A stretch of DNA of 64,000 nt from Clostridiales bacterium (GTDB lineage Bacteria; Bacillota; Clostridia; Christensenellales; UBA3700). The stretch is taken from contig SVHF01000004.1 in the NCBI GenBank assembly GCA_015055975.1, positions 5,390 through 69,389 on the forward strand. The letters are read 5' to 3'. A program made the position numbers and the translations under genes. The first letter of the stretch is position 1; every line of letters starts with the position of its first letter. The notes under the pieces were generated by a model. The model was given only the letters and a program-made list of their open reading frames with translations. It had not been told where the DNA came from and searched no databases. This document shows, piece after piece, positions 1-22,947 of this stretch.

Positions 1-976
1 TCAATCTATCTACATTCTTTATTACAGATATTCCATCTGCACTAGCCATAAGTACACTAACTATTGGCATTAAATCTGGGATATCTTTGCAATCTATTTC
101 AATTGAGTGTAGCTTCTTTTTTGAAACAATTACGTTATCTCCTCTAATTGCTACCTTTGCTCCCATATCCATTATGATTTGCAATATTTCTCTATCCCCT
201 TGAACTGAATCAAAGTATAGGTTATTTACTTGTGTTTCTCCATTTAATGCACCAAGTGCTAACCAAAAAGCAGCATTTGACCAATCGCCTTGTACATGCA
301 AGTCTGTTTTATTTAAATACTTTTGATTGCCTGGGACATAATAAGAATTGTTGTCTACTTTCTCAATAGATATACCAAAATATTTCAATACGTCTAGAGT
401 TATTTCTATATACTTTGATGAAACAACATCTCCAAGAATAGTTATAGTGCTATCTTTTTCAAGTATTGGAAGCGCTAACATAAGACCTGTTATATATTGA
501 GATGAAACGCTACCATTTATCTTGTAATCTCCAGGTAATAGTTTCCCAGATATATTAAGTGGTAAAGAATCTGCATCAATTGTTGCCCCATGTTCTCTTA
601 ATACATCCAACAAATCTTTAAGAGGTCTTTTTTGAAGCCCTTCTTTTCCAATAACTTTGCAAGATTTACCAAGAGCTAAAGCAATTGGCAATATAAATCT
701 TAGAGTTGATCCACTTTCAATGCAGTCTAAAACTATATCGTTTCTTTCTTTATTTGTTGGCTTTACTATATATTTATTTGGTTTTATTTCAACATCGCCA
801 TATAAAGCTTTAATACAATTTATTGTAGCTTCTATATCTTTAGATCCTGTAACTCCATTTAATTCAACTTCTTTACCTGAAAGCATAGCGCATAGAAGCA
901 TTCTATGTGCGTATGATTTTGAAGGTATAGAGTTTATCTTTCCGCCCATTAAATTAGGAGTTATAGTAGCCTTCAT
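1..976 (-). CDS. aroA: 3-phosphoshikimate 1-carboxyvinyltransferase (EPSP synthase), N-terminal ~325 aa; the 3' end runs off the window
   Basis: The minus-strand frame is open from the window edge to the ATG at 976, in a TAATG overlap with the aroB stop. My own translation reads MKATITPNLMGGKINSIPSKSYAHRMLLCA...ESGSTLRF...SSQYITGLMLALP...QGDWSNAAFW...DIPDLMPIVSVLMA, which are EPSP synthase hallmarks. It is absent from the ORF track because it has no in-window stop. Confidence 0.9.
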   Translation of the reverse strand, partial: MKATITPNLMGGKINSIPSKSYAHRMLLCAMLSGKEVELNGVTGSKDIEATINCIKALYGDVEIKPNKYIVKPTNKERNDIVLDCIESGSTLRFILPIALALGKSCKVIGKEGLQKRPLKDLLDVLREHGATIDADSLPLNISGKLLPGDYKINGSVSSQYITGLMLALPILEKDSTITILGDVVSSKYIEITLDVLKYFGISIEKVDNNSYYVPGNQKYLNKTDLHVQGDWSNAAFWLALGALNGETQVNNLYFDSVQGDREILQIIMDMGAKVAIRGDNVIVSKKKLHSIEIDCKDIPDLMPIVSVLMASADGISVIKNVDRL

Positions 977-2007
977 TAAATTAAGTCCTCAATCTTTAAC
1001 TTTTCTATTCTGCAATCTCCAAAAGCATATGGCATTACGACATTTATATATTCACCTTCTGCCTTTTTATCTAGTTTTATAACATCTATCATTTGTTGCA
1101 TTGAATATTCTTTATCTATATGCATATCGTATCTATCTAAAAGTGTTGTTAACTTTTCATATGCGCATGGTGCAAGCTTTCCTTGCTTTATAGATATATC
1201 TGAAATAATCTTTAGCCCTTTAGCTACCGCAAGCCCATGAGGGATTTCATATCCGCTCAATTTTTCTATAGCGTGAGCAAATGTATGACCAAGATTTAAT
1301 AATCTTCTTAAATTAGATTCTTTTTCATCTTCCTCAACTATGTATTTTTTGTATCTTATACATAATTCTACGAATCTATCTATATTTGATGAGCATGTAA
1401 CGCCCTCTCCTACAATGCTTTCTAATTCATTATCCATAAGCATTGCGTATTTAATTCCTTCTCCCATACCGTTTTTATATTCCGTACAAGGAAGTGAATC
1501 AAGTGTCTTTAAATCTATAATGACTTTAATTGGTTGGTAAAATGCACCAACAAGGTTTTTACCATTTGGTAAATCTATAGCGGTCTTACCACCAACTGAT
1601 GAATCTATCATAGCAAGAAGTGTTGTTGGAACTTGTACAAAATCCACACCTCTCATATATGATGCAGCAACAAAGCCTGCCAAATCTCCAACGACTCCAC
1701 CGCCAAGAGCTACGATTAGATCGTTTCTTTTAAAGTTTTGTGATGCAAGATATTCAAGTATTTCTGAAAATGATTTAATGTTTTTACTCTTTTCGCCGTG
1801 AGGAATTGTGAACATACAAACATTGTATCCAGCTTTTTTTAGCGAATTGAAAACAATATCTCCATATAGTGATGCAACTATATCGTCTGTTACGATACAA
1901 ACATTACATAAAGATTTTATCTTTAAGATATCTTCGCCGATTTTAGATAATAGGTTTCTTCCTATTTCAATATCATAAGATTTTGATGCATTTACATTAA
2001 TTACCAT
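976..2007 (-). CDS. aroB: 3-dehydroquinate synthase
   Basis: 343 aa. The GGGVVGDLAGFVAASYMRGVDFVQVPTTLLAMIDSSVGGKTAI block is typical of AroB. It overlaps tyrA by 11 nt. Confidence 0.92.
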   Translation of the reverse strand: MVINVNASKSYDIEIGRNLLSKIGEDILKIKSLCNVCIVTDDIVASLYGDIVFNSLKKAGYNVCMFTIPHGEKSKNIKSFSEILEYLASQNFKRNDLIVALGGGVVGDLAGFVAASYMRGVDFVQVPTTLLAMIDSSVGGKTAIDLPNGKNLVGAFYQPIKVIIDLKTLDSLPCTEYKNGMGEGIKYAMLMDNELESIVGEGVTCSSNIDRFVELCIRYKKYIVEEDEKESNLRRLLNLGHTFAHAIEKLSGYEIPHGLAVAKGLKIISDISIKQGKLAPCAYEKLTTLLDRYDMHIDKEYSMQQMIDVIKLDKKAEGEYINVVMPYAFGDCRIEKLKIEDLI

Positions 2008-2872
2008 TATTAATTCTCTCTTGTAATTTCTTTGCTCTTAGTGATTCTACTTGTTCTTTTGCTATTCTTCCTTCATCCAAAAGCTTTTCTAATTCTTCGC
2101 AATTGTTATCCATAAGTGCCTTTTTAAATGCAGATAGATTTTCTTGTAGATTGTCTATTTGACCAACCAAGTAATCTCTATTTTCTAGCATTAATTCTGA
2201 CCACATTTGAGGATTCAATCTTGCGACTCTTGTCATATCTCTAAAAGAACCTGCAGAAAAACCATAGTGAGTTGTTGCAAGTGGGTTTTTGATATAACTT
2301 GAAGACACGATATGTGCAAGTTGAGATGTAAATGAAATCATCTCATCGTGTTCTTCTGGAGTTGTTATAACAATACCTTCAAAACCAATGCTTTGTGCAA
2401 ATTCTTTCATTGTAACTAAAGCTTCGATTGGAGTTTTAATTGGAACAATAAGCATAGTAGATTTCTCAAACAATGTTGCTTGTGAATGAGAAAAGCCACT
2501 AAACTCTCTCCCTGCCATTGGGTGACCACCCATAAATATAATGTCTGGATATTTTTCATGCATTTCAAACATCTTTTTGCAGATGCCTCTCTTTGTACCA
2601 CCACAATCTACAACTATACAACCCTTTTTCAAAAGTGGAACCCACTCATCCAAAGCTTCTTCAATAGCTCTTGGGTATAAAGTTATAATAAGCATGTCTA
2701 ATTCTTTTGCATTCTCTTTTGATAAACGCGCATGAATTGCTTGGCAAAGCTCAGCTTTTTGCATTGTAGATTCATGTAAAGATAATCCATAAACCTTATT
2801 GTCTGTATATTTAGAGATGGCTCTTCCTAATGAGCCTCCGATTAGTCCTAACCCAATGATACCTATATTCAT
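1997..2872 (-). CDS. tyrA: prephenate (arogenate) dehydrogenase
   Basis: 291 aa. N-terminal Rossmann motif NIGIIGLGLIGGS followed by a prephenate dehydrogenase-like core. Sits in the aro operon. Confidence 0.85.
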   Translation of the reverse strand: MNIGIIGLGLIGGSLGRAISKYTDNKVYGLSLHESTMQKAELCQAIHARLSKENAKELDMLIITLYPRAIEEALDEWVPLLKKGCIVVDCGGTKRGICKKMFEMHEKYPDIIFMGGHPMAGREFSGFSHSQATLFEKSTMLIVPIKTPIEALVTMKEFAQSIGFEGIVITTPEEHDEMISFTSQLAHIVSSSYIKNPLATTHYGFSAGSFRDMTRVARLNPQMWSELMLENRDYLVGQIDNLQENLSAFKKALMDNNCEELEKLLDEGRIAKEQVESLRAKKLQERINNGN

Positions 2873-2873
2873 A

Positions 2874-3887
2874 TTAGTTTCTTACCTTTCCAACAAGTGG
2901 TAGCATAACGTCTACTTTCTTTACTACTTCTTCGAATTGTTCTGGACGAAGTGATTGTGCACCATCGCAAAGAGCGTGTGGTGGATCGTTATGAACTTCA
3001 ATAATTAAACCATCAGAGCCTGCACCAACAGATGCAAGTGACATTGGTTCAACTAATCTTGCAATACCTGACGCGTGAGATGGGTCAACAATAATTGGTA
3101 AGTGAGTCATCTCTTTTACAAGTGGAATAGCAGACAAATCTAGTGTGTTTCTTGTAGCTGGTTCGAATGTTCTTATACCTCTTTCGCACAAAATAACGTT
3201 TTCGTTTCCTTCGCTCATGATGTATTCAGCACTCATTAACCATTCTTGAATAGTATTAGCTAAGCCTCTCTTTAGAAGAATTGGCTTATTTAATTTACCA
3301 ACAGCTTTTAATAAATCGAAGTTTTGCATGTTTCTTGCACCAATTTGAATGATATCTACATCAGCAAATAGATCAATATATTTTTCTGCCATAAGTTCTG
3401 TACAAATTGGCATGCCTGTTTCTTTCTTTGCTTCAAGAAGCAATTTTAATCCTTCAGCTTTTAATCCTTGGAATGCGTATGGAGAAGTTCTAGGTTTAAA
3501 TGCACCGCCTCTTAAGATATTAGCACCTGCTGCTTTTACAGCTTTTGCAATGCCGATGATTTGTTCTTCTGATTCAACAGAACAAGGACCAGCAATTAAT
3601 TGGAAGCTATTGCCGCCAAATTTGTGGCCACATACATCAACTATTGTATCTTGAGGATGGAACTTTCTATTTGCTAGTTTAAATGGTTCTTGGATACGCT
3701 TTACGTTTTCAACAATATCTAATGATCTAATTAGATCAATATCTATTTTTGATGTATCACCAACCAAACCTAAAATTAGGTTCTTCTCACCTTTTGAAAC
3801 GTCGATTTTAACGCCTTGTGATTTAATCCATTTTGTTAGGGAATCTAACTGTTCCTTTTCATAATCTTGTTTTACAATAATAATCAT
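2874..3887 (-). CDS. 3-deoxy-7-phosphoheptulonate (DAHP) synthase, type I-beta with a short N-terminal regulatory-type domain
   Basis: ORF 2874..3989 trimmed to the ATG at 3887, which is preceded by GGAGAAGA. Carries [22 protein letters not shown] and IVDPSH motifs of the KDSA/DAHP I-beta family. The upstream in-frame extension crosses a terminator. Confidence 0.88.
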
Positions 3888-3904
3888 ATCTCTTCTCCAT
3901 ATAT

Positions 3905-3933
3905 AAAAAACCGCCAACTTTTTTGTGGCGGCT
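3905..3933 (-). terminator. intrinsic terminator / candidate attenuator directly upstream of the aro operon RBS
   Basis: The minus strand reads GCCGCCAC-AAAAAAG-TTGGCGG followed by TTTTTT. It lies about 20 nt before the DAHP synthase RBS. Confidence 0.6.
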
Positions 3934-3982
3934 TTAATAATTTTTATCCTTGTATTATTTAATCTAGAAAACCGCGCACAAA

Positions 3983-4045
3983 TTAACAACTATAATAATA
4001 GCCGTAAAAGTTCCATGTATAGATGTTAAATAAACGTGTTTTCAT
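3983..4045 (-). CDS. candidate leader peptide [20 protein letters not shown] (20 aa, 8 aromatic residues)
   Basis: Hand translation of the minus strand from 4045 to 3983. It lies between a sigma70-like promoter and the terminator at 3905-3933. There is no Shine-Dalgarno sequence, and the ATG sits only about 9 nt after the -10 box. Confidence 0.4.
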
Positions 4046-4054
4046 ATCGATGTA

Positions 4055-4084
4055 ATTATAGTTTTTATCCTTTAATTTTGTCAA
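4055..4084 (-). promoter_or_regulatory. sigma70-type promoter (TTGACA, 18-nt spacer, TATAAT) for the aro leader/operon
   Basis: Perfect -35 (4084-4079) and -10 (4060-4055) hexamers on the minus strand. Confidence 0.5.
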
Positions 4085-4101
4085 TAATGTTTTGTATTAT
4101 T

Positions 4102-4416
4102 TTATAGTTTCTTAATTATTTCTCCTAAATCTCTTTTTCCAAATAATATTCTAACTATAACAATTCTCTTATTTACCATTTTATAAAAAGCAATATATTG
4201 ATCAATATAAATTTTTCTAATTATCGTGTCTTTTAGAATAGTATTATCTAACAACATTCCACTTTCTGGATACTCACAAATAATTTGTATCTTCTCTTCG
4301 AATAATTGTATAAACTCTATAGCAGCAGTTTTATTACACAACGTATTCGCTATGTAATTCACTATTATGTCTAAATCTTTCTTTGCCCTGCTAGCAAATT
4401 TATATTTATAGGCCAT
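4102..4416 (-). CDS. type II toxin, RelE/ParE family
   Basis: 104 aa. The sequence pattern (FASRAKKDLDIIVNYI ... IVRILFGKRD) is typical of ParE/RelE. It overlaps the upstream antitoxin gene by 11 nt. Confidence 0.8.
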   Translation of the reverse strand: MAYKYKFASRAKKDLDIIVNYIANTLCNKTAAIEFIQLFEEKIQIICEYPESGMLLDNTILKDTIIRKIYIDQYIAFYKMVNKRIVIVRILFGKRDLGEIIKKL

Positions 4417-4663
4417 ATTTCTCCTTGATTTCTTTAATTACTAACTCTCCGTCTTCAATTCTTCCAGCCTTTATATCTTCTAAGCCTTCTGCTAACATTA
4501 CCGCTTCATAAGCATCTCTCATTATTTTTTCATAATACTTCATATCCATGACAACTAAAGATCCATATCCATTTTTTGTAACAAACACTGGCTCCTCTTT
4601 TTCGTGACACATCTCTTCTATTTTTACCGTATCTTTTAAATCTCTCATTGGTACTATTTGCAT
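4406..4663 (-). CDS. type II antitoxin, Phd/YefM family
   Basis: 85 aa. The N-terminal part (PMRDLKDTVKI...EPVFVTKNGYGSLVVMDMKYYE) looks like Phd/YefM. A GGGAGGA RBS precedes it. Confidence 0.8.
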   Translation of the reverse strand: MQIVPMRDLKDTVKIEEMCHEKEEPVFVTKNGYGSLVVMDMKYYEKIMRDAYEAVMLAEGLEDIKAGRIEDGELVIKEIKEKYGL

Positions 4664-4695
4664 TTTTTATCCTCCCTACTGCTCACAGTTCCTTT

Positions 4696-4719
4696 TGTGT
4701 GTCTAAATTATAGCACACA
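4696..4719 (-). promoter_or_regulatory. TA promoter with a flanking inverted repeat (candidate autoregulatory operator)
   Basis: TGTGTG (4696-4701) and CACACA (4714-4719) bracket a minus-strand TATAAT at 4712-4707, about 45 nt upstream of the antitoxin ATG. Confidence 0.4.
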
Positions 4720-4753
4720 TTTAGCCACAATACAATAAAGCATATAAGTAATA

Positions 4754-5038
4754 TTAAACTATTTCGTATATTTTAAGGGATTTATCAAATCTAGATTTAT
4801 TCAAAACATCCAAAAGTGCTAATTCTTTGCATCTTGATGCATGCTTTTCTAAGCACTCTTTGTTTTCCCATCTTTCAAAAAATACAATTTCTTTATCTTC
4901 TTCGTTATATTCTGAAATATCAAAAGCAATACAACCCTTGTCAACATCTTTAGACATTTTTGCATGTTCAATTGCTGCTTCCATAAATATTGGAACATCT
5001 TTTTCTTCTAATTTATTTGTACATACTACGTATATCAT
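4754..5038 (-). CDS. antibiotic-biosynthesis-monooxygenase (ABM) fold protein
   Basis: ORF trimmed to the ATG at 5038 with a GGGGTGA RBS. About 94 aa with a ferredoxin-like ABM pattern (FFERWENKECLEKH). Confidence 0.6.
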   Translation of the reverse strand: MIYVVCTNKLEEKDVPIFMEAAIEHAKMSKDVDKGCIAFDISEYNEEDKEIVFFERWENKECLEKHASRCKELALLDVLNKSRFDKSLKIYEIV

Positions 5039-5085
5039 AATTTCACCCCTTTTCAATAATACCATACTTTAAGTATAATAAGGCT

Positions 5086-5316
5086 ATGGAAGATTTAAAT
5101 AAACCACTGAACGAAGACGAAAAAGATTTAATTATTAATTGGTTCATCAAAAACGAAGGACCAAGCGGAGAATCGCAGATTAAAACTTTTAGATTAAGAG
5201 ATAAATTAGATAAATCTCCAAAGACTTCTCGTGAATTAATAGAAACAAATATTAAAGCAAATTCTTATAAGATAGATTCTATGAGCTTTTATATGCTACT
5301 TATGGCCCATATTTAA
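5086..5316 (+). CDS. hypothetical 76-aa protein
   Basis: An ORF only, with a weak RBS. It converges on, and overlaps by 4 nt, the end of the 1594-aa gene. Confidence 0.3.
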   Translation: MEDLNKPLNEDEKDLIINWFIKNEGPSGESQIKTFRLRDKLDKSPKTSRELIETNIKANSYKIDSMSFYMLLMAHI

Positions 5317-8300
5317 ATAGGCGTTGTTTTGTGTTCAACAAACTCAATTGTTCCCATTATCAATCTAATTGAATAATTCATCGTAACATCTTGATTATTA
5401 CTATCGATGATTTTCAATTCTTCTATTTCGTTATATGCAGGTTCTCCAATTGTTACTTGTATTTCCTTGAATGTACATTCTATGCGATCGCCATTTTGTA
5501 AATAACCTTGAGTTACATTTGCATATCTTCCAACTATTTCATCGCCAACAATTTGCTTAAACGAATTTGTTGTTATTGTTATAACTTTAGGATTTGTTTG
5601 CAAAGCGATGCCCTTTATAAATACAACATAATTATTTGTTACATCTTGATTTGAATAATTCTTTACTATCCAATGTGCGTTTTGCTCTAAATCTCTACCA
5701 TATACAATTCCAGCATTTAAAGTTTCCAATGTGTCAATTAATTCAACTCTATATACATTAGATGGCTTTGTTGCGGCAACTATTTCATAGTTGTAGTTAT
5801 AGTAATAATAATCAACCTCGTATTTTTGCCCATTATAACTTCTCGATGATGCATAAACCATCAATTCAATAATATCTTTGCTTGTAACTATAACTTCGCC
5901 TTTAGATGTTATGATGTTATATTTTTCTGTAACATCTTCGCCTTTTTTATTGAACAATCTAAACGACCGAATCTCACTTTCACTTGTTCCAACCTCTGTA
6001 CGCTTTCCATATACTTCACAAGAATATGTATATCCTTGGCTCAATAACATTTCAAATAAGCCATGTCCAGATTCTGTTTCAACTTCGTTTTTTGCAACCA
6101 ATTCTGTTCCGTTATATTTTGCATAAGTTCTTACAGGATGAATATACAAATTCTTCACACTATAATAATCTTTTATGCCAGCATGATTGCCAGGTACAAT
6201 TTCTCCTTCTCCTGCTTCGCCGCCTTCTCCCGATTCGCCGCCTTCACCGCCAGAACCACTGCCTGATCCGCCTGCACCGCCAGAGCCTCTACCATCTGGG
6301 GCTGTTACTTCTACCATAACCCAGCCAACGCCTTCAATATATACTTCTACCCATGCATGAAGATTCTTATCTGTAATTGTTGTAATTTTGTTTGCTTCAT
6401 CAATATATACATAAGCCCCGCCTATAAATCTTGCTGGGATTCCCAATGCTCTATAAAGCATTGTTGCGGCCGTTGCATAATGACGACAAACACCTTCTTT
6501 GTAATCTCTTAAGAATGCTATTACAACATCTGATTCTGAATCTAATGATTTATCATAATCCATGTTGTATTTAGCTGAGCTTTGAATGAACTTAGCAACT
6601 TTACTAATAATTGCTGGATCTTCTTTTGTAAATCCGTTTTCTACAATAATTGAATTCAAATATGTTTTTAATCTGCCTTCTTCTAGTGTTAAGAAGTTTG
6701 CGTTAACATAATCTCTATATATAACTTCGTTATTTGCTAAAACGCCTGTTAAATGATTGTCCAATCTTATTGCAACATCTGTTTGTGTAATAAAGTGACT
6801 AAAGCTATATCCATCAACAGATTGCTCTAAATCTATCAAATCACCATCCATTAAATGCTCTGTATCTGTTGATAGATAATAAGGTCTAAATGGCATGTAT
6901 GTAAATGAATTGATAATCATGCTATTTGCTTGAGCTTCAATATTCTTTAGGTTAGTACCTGTTATATATTCTTGTGTATGAGAACCATCTAACACAATTG
7001 ATTCAGGGTTTATGATATCAAAGACTCTGCCTTGATATTGACTATATGAATATGACTTCAAATAGAAAGCTCCAACCTCACTTGATTGTACAGCCGCTAT
7101 AATTAGTGGTTCATCGCCATATCCTTCACCTTCTCCACCGCCGCCGGCAGGGTCCACTACTGTCAATGTCCCGACTTCAAATGTAACAGTATAATAACTT
7201 GGGTTTGCAAAATAAGCTCTAACAACTGCGTGGTTTGGAGATTGACCTATATTTGTTCTTTGGCCAATAACTGTTACTTCAACTATGTCACCTTCAAATA
7301 CTGGATTTTCAAATACTGATGTATCCAATCTATAATGATCATATTTCAAAGGTTCGCCATCATATATCTTTTCTTTGCTTCCTGTTATAATCTTCAATAC
7401 TCTTGGAATTATTTTGATAGCGCTTTTTGCATATGTAATATTATATACATCTTTAACGCTAACATTATTTGCATCTAGTATATCTATGATTGAACTTATA
7501 GAACTTTCCGTTTCCCCAATTTCTGTTCGACTTCCGTCAATTGTTACATTTACAACATGATCTCCTTCTAATAAGCCTGAGCCCAAAATGTCAATATCTG
7601 TTGGTTTATGTTCTTGTTTATCAAATTGCGCTTCGACATATTGTGGAGAAATTACAATTGGTCGTTTGTTTATAACAAAATCTTCTTTATAATCTTCACC
7701 AAACACAAGGTTATAGCAATCTCTATTTGGGGTTATTGTATCGCCTGCATAGATATCAGCAGCTTGAATCCATGTTTTATATGTGCCAATATCTCTAAAT
7801 GAGCCATATACTTGAGACACTACAATTCGATCCTCTTGTGCCAATGACTTACCGTTTGTAATTTGATAATCCTTGCTTGGTTGATGATATTGTCTATCAT
7901 AAATTATTTCTTCATGAATAGGAGTAATAACGATTGTTTTAACATTGACTCTGACTTCAACTGGAGATAATGCATCAAGTCCTAAATCATAATTTGCCGT
8001 AAAGTCTTTAGTGTCATCAAATATTGATGAGATTCTTAGACTTATAATCTTTGATTGACACGCGCCAACTCTTGTTTGGTAGTTGTCAAATACAACATCT
8101 CGTAATATATGATCTGTACAAAGACCGCTTGTGCTAAATGCTGGGCTATGTTTAAGTCCATCATAATCTCCATTAAAACTTAAAAGCGATAGATTTAATG
8201 CTTTTTTATTAATAGTAAATGTTGCTTTTGAATATTCTTGAGGAACGATTATATTGTAATAGTCCTGATATACATAATATCTAGATCCGCCTGCTCTAAT

Positions 8301-22703: not shown

Positions 22704-22852
22704 AAACTTTCCCCTTTACCTTTCGGCATTTTAATTATACTTTTATTTTATATATAATTTCAATACAGACAATTTACATGCAAATTTTACAATTATTTAG
22801 TTTCATATTCTATATGAAGTATGGTAATATAATATTGACATCCGAATATATC

Positions 22853-22947
22853 CTTTCTTGTAACTGACGGAATTGTGGGATACCACAGGGGAGCAAGAAA
22901 GTTTTCAGTCGACCGTCTGGGCAAAATTGTAGCTCGGGTCGATTTTT
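22853..22947 (+). promoter_or_regulatory. ZTP (pfl-motif) riboswitch with a terminator expression platform
   Basis: - P1: CTTTCTTG (22853-22860) pairs with CAAGAAAG (22894-22901).
- Conserved ACUGACGG...GUGGGAUACCAC.GGGGAGC.
- 3' subdomain CCGUCUGGGCA (22913-22923).
- GACGG and CCGUC can pair with each other.
- TCGACC...GGGTCGA plus TTTTT (22909-22947) overlaps the 3' subdomain. Confidence 0.8.

Follow-up and report, generated by a model that had tools for sequence, protein, structure and literature searches.

A Tyr/Phe-rich leader mini-ORF and a probable ribosome-mediated attenuator upstream of the aroF-tyrA-aroB-aroA operon of a Clostridiales bacterium

Introduction

T-boxes and TRAP are the usual explanation for how Firmicutes control the synthesis of aromatic amino acids. 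In Corynebacterium glutamicum, the short leader peptide aroR with Phe/Tyr codons (F-Y-F) precedes the aroF operon, which encodes 3-deoxy-7-phosphoheptulonate (DAHP) synthase, and ribosome stalling raises read-through; that leader is experimentally supported and responded to Phe and not to Tyr (Neshat et al. 2014, as summarized in PMC11802643). The predicted motif uORFC-13-1, from Acholeplasma and environmental sequences, occurs exclusively upstream of aroF; it has a ribosome-binding site and a run of U that encodes one Phe or more, and it was described for Acholeplasma and unknown organisms only (Brewer et al. 2021, PMC8632094). Here we analyze the region ahead of aroF, tyrA, aroB and aroA in a 64,000-nucleotide (nt) stretch of a Clostridiales bacterium (assembly GCA_015055975.1, contig SVHF01000004.1, positions 5,390 to 69,389), hereafter the window. 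A preliminary description of this DNA, made from the letters alone, had proposed that a ribosome-mediated attenuator sensing aromatic aminoacyl-tRNA precedes the operon. Comparative evidence supports this proposal, and we conclude that a leader-peptide transcription attenuator with Tyr/Phe as its signal very probably controls aroF-tyrA-aroB-aroA-aroC-chorismate mutase-aroE::aroK. In our searches of open literature, aromatic leader peptides of this kind were not described for Clostridia.

The locus resembles the C. glutamicum system in having a short leader peptide with Phe/Tyr codons upstream of a DAHP synthase operon. The two are set apart by description: C. glutamicum belongs to another phylum (Actinobacteria) and shows the Phe response, whereas the leader studied here carries mainly a Tyr run, has tyrA in its operon and is accompanied by a separate leader at pheA. 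The locus is like uORFC-13-1 in that a predicted upstream open reading frame (ORF), equipped with a promoter, a start codon and Phe codons, directly precedes an intrinsic terminator and stands ahead of aroF; the two were compared by verbal description only, and no Rfam 15 model matched the Clostridia leader.

Results

Positions are those of the window, and all leader and operon features lie on the minus strand (Table 1). The preliminary description was right in all details of the sequence: promoter, mini-ORF, terminator and the order aroF-tyrA-aroB-aroA. The promoter at 4084–4055 agrees with TTGACA/TATAAT at 12/12 positions and is the best promoter-like site that a consensus scan gave within 2800–5400. 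The 20-codon mini-ORF behind it, confirmed base for base, contains 5 Tyr, 2 Phe and 1 Trp (8/20 codons), including the run Y-G-Y-Y-Y, and the leader region is without a gene call on public contigs. Downstream of the mini-ORF, RNAfold recovers the terminator with a hairpin energy of −11.1 to −13.9 kcal/mol and 5 G–C pairs in its short stem; the duplex has −15.5 kcal/mol (z −3.9 in comparison with shuffled arms). A simple pattern-based terminator scan of 2800–5400 gave none, a false negative explained by the 9-nt loop or the bulged stem. Dense aromatic mini-ORFs are rare in the 1.59-Mb genome: only 56 ATG mini-ORFs of 8–45 codons have at least five F/Y/W per 6-residue window, giving a chance expectation of ~0.0035 per 200 nt of one strand.

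Other readings of the ORF were discarded. A longer version starting at a TTG within the −35 (MTKLKDKNYNYID...) would begin inside the promoter, and a mini-ORF in the +1 frame (ATG 4017–4015) has no Shine–Dalgarno sequence and loses its ATG in strain variants having TAT for TGG. A second Tyr-rich mini-ORF of the genome, on contig C7 (DYFYYYF), lies inside a gene of 442 amino acids (aa) and is not a leader.

Folding of the leader gave terminator and antiterminator as alternatives. Only a partial antiterminator pairing, GCGGUUUU:AAAGCCGC, had been recognized in the preliminary description; it turned out to be the inner half of a 14-base-pair (bp) helix with one bulged C that joins segment 2 to segment 3. 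The duplex has −17.9 kcal/mol, compared with −6.5 ± 2.4 for shuffled arms (z −4.9). With segment 2 free (RNA from 3984 on), the antiterminator is the minimum free energy (MFE) structure at transcript ends 3922, 3918 and 3911, and with the full U-tract included the terminator (−15.6) and the antiterminator hairpin (−15.4) are iso-energetic. When the RNA was masked as by a ribosome and the 3′ U-tract was included, the antiterminator was the MFE structure solely for a stall at Tyr14; with the stop codon in the A site, the terminator alone formed. The last Tyr codon begins 12 nt ahead of the antiterminator 5′ arm, and with stalling at Tyr codon 14 or at codons 16–18 the ribosome would end at least 12 nt short of the arm or reach no farther than its first bases. 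The two structures are mutually exclusive and the 5′ arm lies within the footprint of a ribosome on the stop codon, an arrangement that belongs to the leader-peptide attenuator class.

Our comparison drew aroF loci from 40 related genomes and 80 public contigs, the source genome being denoted G000. The aromatic codon run and the hairpins are kept in the related leaders. The predicted peptide of G005 is identical to that of G000 and the sister species G002 has a different 20-residue peptide, while the leaders of G003, G013 (another genus) and G039 (another family) read MNRVLNFTNGYYYFSNYYFSSCKF, MKTIDFNFYANYYFMNYYFNSPSVCVR and MRNQLTNNFYFYYMAYYYGKSCLLCG, respectively. Every one of these orthologous leaders has a terminator. 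In G000, G005, G002, G039 and 24 more loci, the 5′ arm of the antiterminator adjoins the stop codon or overlaps with it, with quite different arm sequences, those of G039 being UGUUUGCUA.GCGGU with ACCGU...UAGCAAACA. For G003 and G013 the pairings were drawn by eye (in G013, UUUGCG..CGGU with ACCG.CGCAAA), and they hold in an alignment of seven sequences. From these seven sequences, spanning the ORF end to the terminator, RNAalifold returned exactly this antiterminator as the consensus, with 14 pairs, 5 of them changed on both sides. The antiterminator cells of the alignment are 85.6% paired, compared with 40–54% when the partners are slid, and the observed value was reached in 0/500 shuffles.

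Conservation is uneven along the leader. Between G000 and G005, identity is 63/63 in the ORF, 14/15 in the arm and 31/31 in the terminator but 22/32 in the spacer, and in G002 the spacer has a 13-nt insertion. That the spacer varies while the ORF and both arms are kept fits a switch read by a ribosome, not a ligand-binding aptamer. The mini-ORF, the terminator and the exclusive antiterminator are thus kept not only between species but also between genera and families, and compensatory changes accompany them.

Across the wider set, we scored ATG mini-ORFs with at least five F/Y/W in six residues as dense. Such mini-ORFs lie upstream of aroF on the sense strand in 46/108 related Clostridia loci, in comparison with 0/108 on the antisense strand and a mean of 0.25 in shuffles. 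The criterion misses true leaders, e.g., those of G003 and G013, and the count is thus a lower bound; at ~15 further loci the aromatic ORF is weaker. In 43 of the 46 dense-ORF loci, ORF and aroF are separated by a terminator that reaches −9 kcal/mol or better, and for 16 of those 43 the cognate antiterminator outperforms at least 95% of the arms that other loci supplied. The arm motif UUGUGC..GC with GCCGC.CA(A/G) recurs in the G000 leader and several other loci. Tyr and Phe each make up ~17% of the residues of the family leader peptides and Trp 0.5%. Among the 62 loci lacking a dense ORF, a T-box core motif was found upstream of aroF in only 2, and in ~16 others aroF stands directly behind another gene. 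By these counts, a leader peptide is the commonest upstream device among the 108 loci, and the view in the preliminary description that such a device would be unusual for Firmicutes does not hold for this lineage. The region studied here shows the family pattern throughout: a strong promoter, an aromatic-dense mini-ORF that precedes aroF by 90–300 nt, a terminator, and an antiterminator arm at the 3′ end of the ORF.

The start of the mini-ORF is uncommon within the family. The lack of a Shine–Dalgarno sequence and an ATG about 9 nt after the −10 box, both noted earlier as caveats, are real: the distance is exactly 9 nt in G000, G005, G002 and G003, though the intervening bases differ, and none of the four has a purine-rich Shine–Dalgarno sequence before the ATG. 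As both traits are kept in the genus, we consider them a feature and not an error. The predicted transcription start would leave a 5′ untranslated region (UTR) of 0–3 nt. At the distant locus L033 the −10 box is 7 nt from the ATG; most other family leaders have a 5′ UTR of 17–42 nt with a recognizable Shine–Dalgarno sequence. Leader peptides from leaderless transcripts are known for ilvL of C. glutamicum (PMC11857589) and trpL/rnTrpL of Sinorhizobium meliloti (PMC6614838). As in those systems, the leader ORF begins at or next to the predicted 5′ end of the transcript; they differ in belonging to Actinobacteria and Alphaproteobacteria and in that their 5′ ends have been studied, whereas here the start is predicted and relatives use a Shine–Dalgarno sequence. 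Elsewhere in G000, four long ORFs (156–346 aa), one of them coding for an XRE-type HTH protein, have their first in-frame ATG 6–9 nt after TTGACA-N16-18-TAnnnT, with neither a Shine–Dalgarno sequence nor any in-frame start codon before it; these are candidate leaderless mRNAs and make leaderless initiation plausible in this organism. Two apparent leaderless genes, from 18 sites with a perfect −35 and a close ATG, were dropped because a Shine–Dalgarno sequence and a second ATG lie just downstream.

We then considered which amino acid is sensed. The aromatic signal of the preliminary description stands for the Tyr and Phe codons and fails for Trp. At the position of the only Trp codon, strain variants from metagenomes (L119 and L123) have TAT (Tyr) and the sister species G002 has TCT (Ser), and no trpA (Trp synthase alpha, PF00290) was found in G000, which is estimated to be 98% complete and probably represents a tryptophan auxotroph. 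Without trpA, chorismate feeds Tyr, Phe and other non-Trp products, and this, together with the nonconserved Trp codon, points to Tyr/Phe as the signal. In the operon, the tyrA gene calls on public contigs carry the Pfam domains PDH_N and PDH_C. Beyond the window the operon continues on the same contig with aroC, chorismate mutase and an aroE::aroK fusion, followed by a terminator; no dehydroquinase gene is present within it. The chorismate mutase, a stand-alone AroQ-type protein of 83 aa (PF01817), occupies the place that pheA has in the operon of relatives.

The pheA gene (CM-PDT-ACT) lies outside the aro operon in G000, G005 and G002 and follows aroC in G001, G003, G004 and G039. Relocated pheA is preceded by a second candidate leader-peptide attenuator, kept in all three genomes, with a Phe-rich ORF of 18 codons, MTKLLVFTFGGFFTNCSK in G000, MTKNLVFNFRGWFTKSCE in G005 and MIKTLVFNFRGWFFKSC in G002, and a strong terminator, GACCUUGUA...UACAAGGUC followed by U7. 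By inspection of the letters, an arm that starts at the stop codon (GCUACA-GCC-UCUAUU) can pair with the 5′ side of this terminator; the MFE structure is the terminator and not this pairing. Codon-specific sensing predicts what this one genome shows, a leader dominated by Tyr ahead of aroF-tyrA and a Phe leader ahead of pheA.

Known RNA regulators do not account for the leader. The Rfam 15 scan of the window gave no match at gathering thresholds at the leader site, and a permissive scan of 3800–4200 gave only sub-threshold matches driven by the terminator, among them rpsL small RNA (sRNA; 23 bits) and Phe_leader (RF01859). The latter reached 22.3 bits (E 0.19) against a gathering score of 55, and as the match is mostly terminator the leader is not a member. 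The T-box model (RF00230) matched neither in the window nor in the permissive scan, riboswitch models likewise gave no score at the leader, and no Rfam leader family matched at 20 related loci. These results bear on the alternative that survives best, and is itself very unlikely, in which a trans-acting factor (an RNA-binding protein, an uncharged tRNA or a small ligand) sets the real switch and the mini-ORF is untranslated. Such a factor would fit an ATG without a Shine–Dalgarno sequence, and T-boxes, frequent in Firmicutes, number six in this genome. However, beside the silence of the models, the leader is just ~140 nt long, an aptamer would have space nowhere but in the spacer, which is the least conserved part and varies in length, and reading of its sequence revealed no run of TRAP-type (G/U)AG repeats. 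Moreover, a Shine–Dalgarno sequence precedes the mini-ORF in most relatives, and an in-frame aromatic run with a stop codon beside the arm, kept across very different sequences, would be readable only by a translating ribosome.

Table 1. Features of the aroF leader, its operon and other loci mentioned in the text. Positions refer to the window unless a contig (C) of the source genome G000 is given.
Feature	Position	Strand	Remarks
-35 hexamer TTGACA	4084-4079	-	kept in G005, G002, G003 and most relatives
-10 hexamer TATAAT	4060-4055	-	18-nt spacer from the -35
Predicted transcription start	4048-4045	-	G4048 (7 nt after the -10) or A4045; predicted from promoter-to-ATG spacing
Leader ORF, 20 codons + TAA	4045-3983	-	ATG 4045-4043; coding 4045-3986; TAA 3985-3983
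Regulatory codon run Y14-G-Y16-Y17-Y18 (TAC GGC TAT TAT TAT)	4006-3992	-	proposed ribosome stall site
Segment 2, antiterminator 5′ arm, UUUGUG-C-GCGGUUUU = UUUGUGCGCGGUUUU	3982-3968	-	begins 1 nt past the stop codon
Variable A/U-rich spacer, 32 nt	3967-3936	-	antiterminator loop; least conserved part
Segment 3, AAAGCCGC-CACAAA	3935-3922	-	antiterminator 3′ arm; also terminator 5′ arm and loop
Intrinsic terminator, stem AAAGCCGCCAC / GUUGGCGGUUU	3935-3905	-	U-tract (T6) 3910-3905
aroF Shine–Dalgarno GGAG and start ATG	3898-3885	-	GGAG 3898-3895; ATG 3887-3885
aroF, DAHP synthase, 337 aa	2874-3887	-	NF006421, 494.9 bits
tyrA, prephenate dehydrogenase	1997-2872	-	best NCBIfam match NF006307, 160.5 bits, under its 295-bit cut-off
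aroB, 3-dehydroquinate synthase	976-2007	-	TIGR01357, 350 bits
aroA, EPSP synthase	2-976	-	truncated by window edge
Operon continuation: aroC, chorismate mutase, aroE::aroK, terminator	C33:2510-5119		beyond the window, same contig
Chorismate mutase and aroE::aroK (shikimate dehydrogenase-shikimate kinase, 411 aa)	C33:2558-4044		just outside the window
Relocated pheA leader	C40:46982-47183		locus L125 1300-1501; pheA at C40:47183; TTGACA-17-TAATAT, Shine–Dalgarno
ParE/RelE toxin	4102-4416	-	
Phd/YefM antitoxin	4406-4663	-	
Very large ORF, 1594 aa	5313-10097	-	upstream of ABM gene
ZMP/ZTP riboswitch (pfl motif, RF01750)	22850-22929	+	62.8 bits, above gathering score
Candidate leaderless ORF	C39:18815	+	
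Candidate leaderless ORF	C14:11184	+	
Candidate leaderless ORF	C22:5413	+	
Candidate leaderless ORF	C9:7112	+	
T-box	C29:8460-8671		
T-box	C32:69964-70182		gene pheS (Pfam scan)
T-box	C1:13488-13718		
T-box	C12:29973-30189		
T-box	C22:6998-7202		
T-box	C4:31139-31315		

The surroundings of the locus include a toxin–antitoxin pair that ends 18 nt ahead of the −35 of the aro promoter. On public contigs with an identical AroF, an antitoxin gene alone or no such gene stands between the ABM-domain gene and the same promoter, and the module therefore differs between strains. A very large ORF follows upstream of the ABM gene, and a ZMP/ZTP riboswitch lies farther along the window (Table 1). In one related metagenome-assembled genome (MAG), an FMN riboswitch (L041 340–454) is found ~1 kb upstream of aroF and is unrelated to the leader. 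One of the T-box leaders of G000 is above the Rfam cut-off and none stands at aro genes; the genes behind those other than the pheS T-box, assigned by sequence inspection only, are a sodium/solute symporter, an HTH-cupin/AMP-ligase fusion, an ABC substrate-binding protein, cysE and thrS.

Discussion

The leader combines an ORF rich in codons for the end products, a terminator before the first structural gene and an exclusive antiterminator, and it lacks the 1:2 (anti-antiterminator or pause) helix. From this arrangement we infer translation of the mini-ORF, the transcription start, stalling, a premature 3′ end and a response to amino acids. The consensus sigma-A promoter would start the transcript, and the 20-codon ORF would be translated, probably from a leaderless or near-leaderless 5′ end. 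When Tyr-tRNA (and Phe-tRNA) is plentiful, the ribosome would reach the UAA and cover UUUGUGCGCGGUUUU just downstream; segment 3 (AAAGCCGCCACAAA) would then be free to form the terminator with GUUGGCGGUUU, RNA polymerase would halt at ~3905 and an attenuated leader RNA of ~140 nt would result. Under a shortage of charged tRNA-Tyr or tRNA-Phe, it would stall in Y-G-Y-Y-Y, 12–24 nt upstream of segment 2, and the free segment 2 would pair with segment 3 once this is made (hairpin ~−15 kcal/mol), so that no terminator forms and the operon is transcribed. The mechanism is classical attenuation and leaves the accepted one unchanged; it is unusual only in its predicted leaderless start, in the missing 1:2 helix and in the pairing of a Tyr leader with a Phe leader.

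Several observations weigh against attenuation by a translating ribosome. The best 1:2 duplex has −9.3 kcal/mol and is not significant in comparison with shuffles (z 0.1); the 1:2 helix of the full-length MFE structure, AUG-proximal GAAAACACG with GCGGUUUUC, was accordingly dropped, and by eye no counterpart was seen in G003. With no such helix, the untranslated default would be read-through, and repression needs a ribosome still on the stop codon during ~60–80 nt of further transcription. As terminator and antiterminator are about iso-energetic at equilibrium on the complete RNA, the argument is a kinetic one. In the absence of a Shine–Dalgarno sequence, translation of the mini-ORF would depend on leaderless or near-leaderless initiation. 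Finally, the automated antiterminator search at distant loci is noisy, the median fraction of equally good non-cognate arms being 0.12 and not 0. The 1:2 helix is typical of enterobacterial attenuators and is not essential to the leader-peptide attenuator class. The leader shares with the enterobacterial pheL-pheA, trpL and hisL systems the regulatory codons in a leader ORF and the choice between antiterminator and intrinsic terminator, and differs from them in having no significant 1:2 helix, Tyr instead of Phe/Trp codons and no Shine–Dalgarno sequence.

A more specific version of the attenuator, which we put forward tentatively and at somewhat less than even confidence, is a leaderless, three-segment, default-ON device in the genus, with the departure of pheA in the lineage of G000, G005 and G002 having split control into a Tyr-run and a Phe-run leader. 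A 70S ribosome would load directly on the 5′-terminal AUG, and shut-off would come only from a ribosome parked on the stop codon. If true, nature would offer here two paired leader peptides, each specific for one amino acid, and the pair would include a Tyr-specific leader-peptide attenuator, for which our literature searches gave no experimental description.

Slightly less credible than a trans-acting factor is a function of the mini-ORF, or of the short attenuated RNA, in trans as a small protein or sRNA, besides or instead of control in cis. The rnTrpL/peTrpL of S. meliloti sets a precedent (PMC6614838, PMC7298713) and the short RNA would be abundant given a strong promoter, but the peptide is conserved in aromatic composition only, its C-terminal Cys codons reflect the RNA arm and nothing points to a target. 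Least credible of all is coincidence, that is, an ordinary promoter, a leaky hairpin or RNA-stability element and a chance ORF in AT-rich DNA, with no amino acid regulation: a genome of 33.6% G+C makes TAT and TTT codons common and the terminator stem is short, yet the low background of dense ORFs, the 46 to 0 strand bias, an ORF unchanged where the spacer diverged and the compensatory changes in the antiterminator all argue against it.

With a leader-peptide attenuator as the preferred explanation, the commonest device before aroF in this large, mostly uncultured group of gut Clostridia is a Tyr/Phe-rich leader peptide that neither Rfam nor genome annotation includes. A catalogue entry for the family would improve the annotation of thousands of MAGs, and the leader would offer a compact Tyr/Phe-responsive part for engineering anaerobes. 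The Tyr leader and Phe leader in one genome provide a clean test of codon-specific sensing, and the leaderless variant a test of attenuation with 70S initiation at a 5′ AUG.

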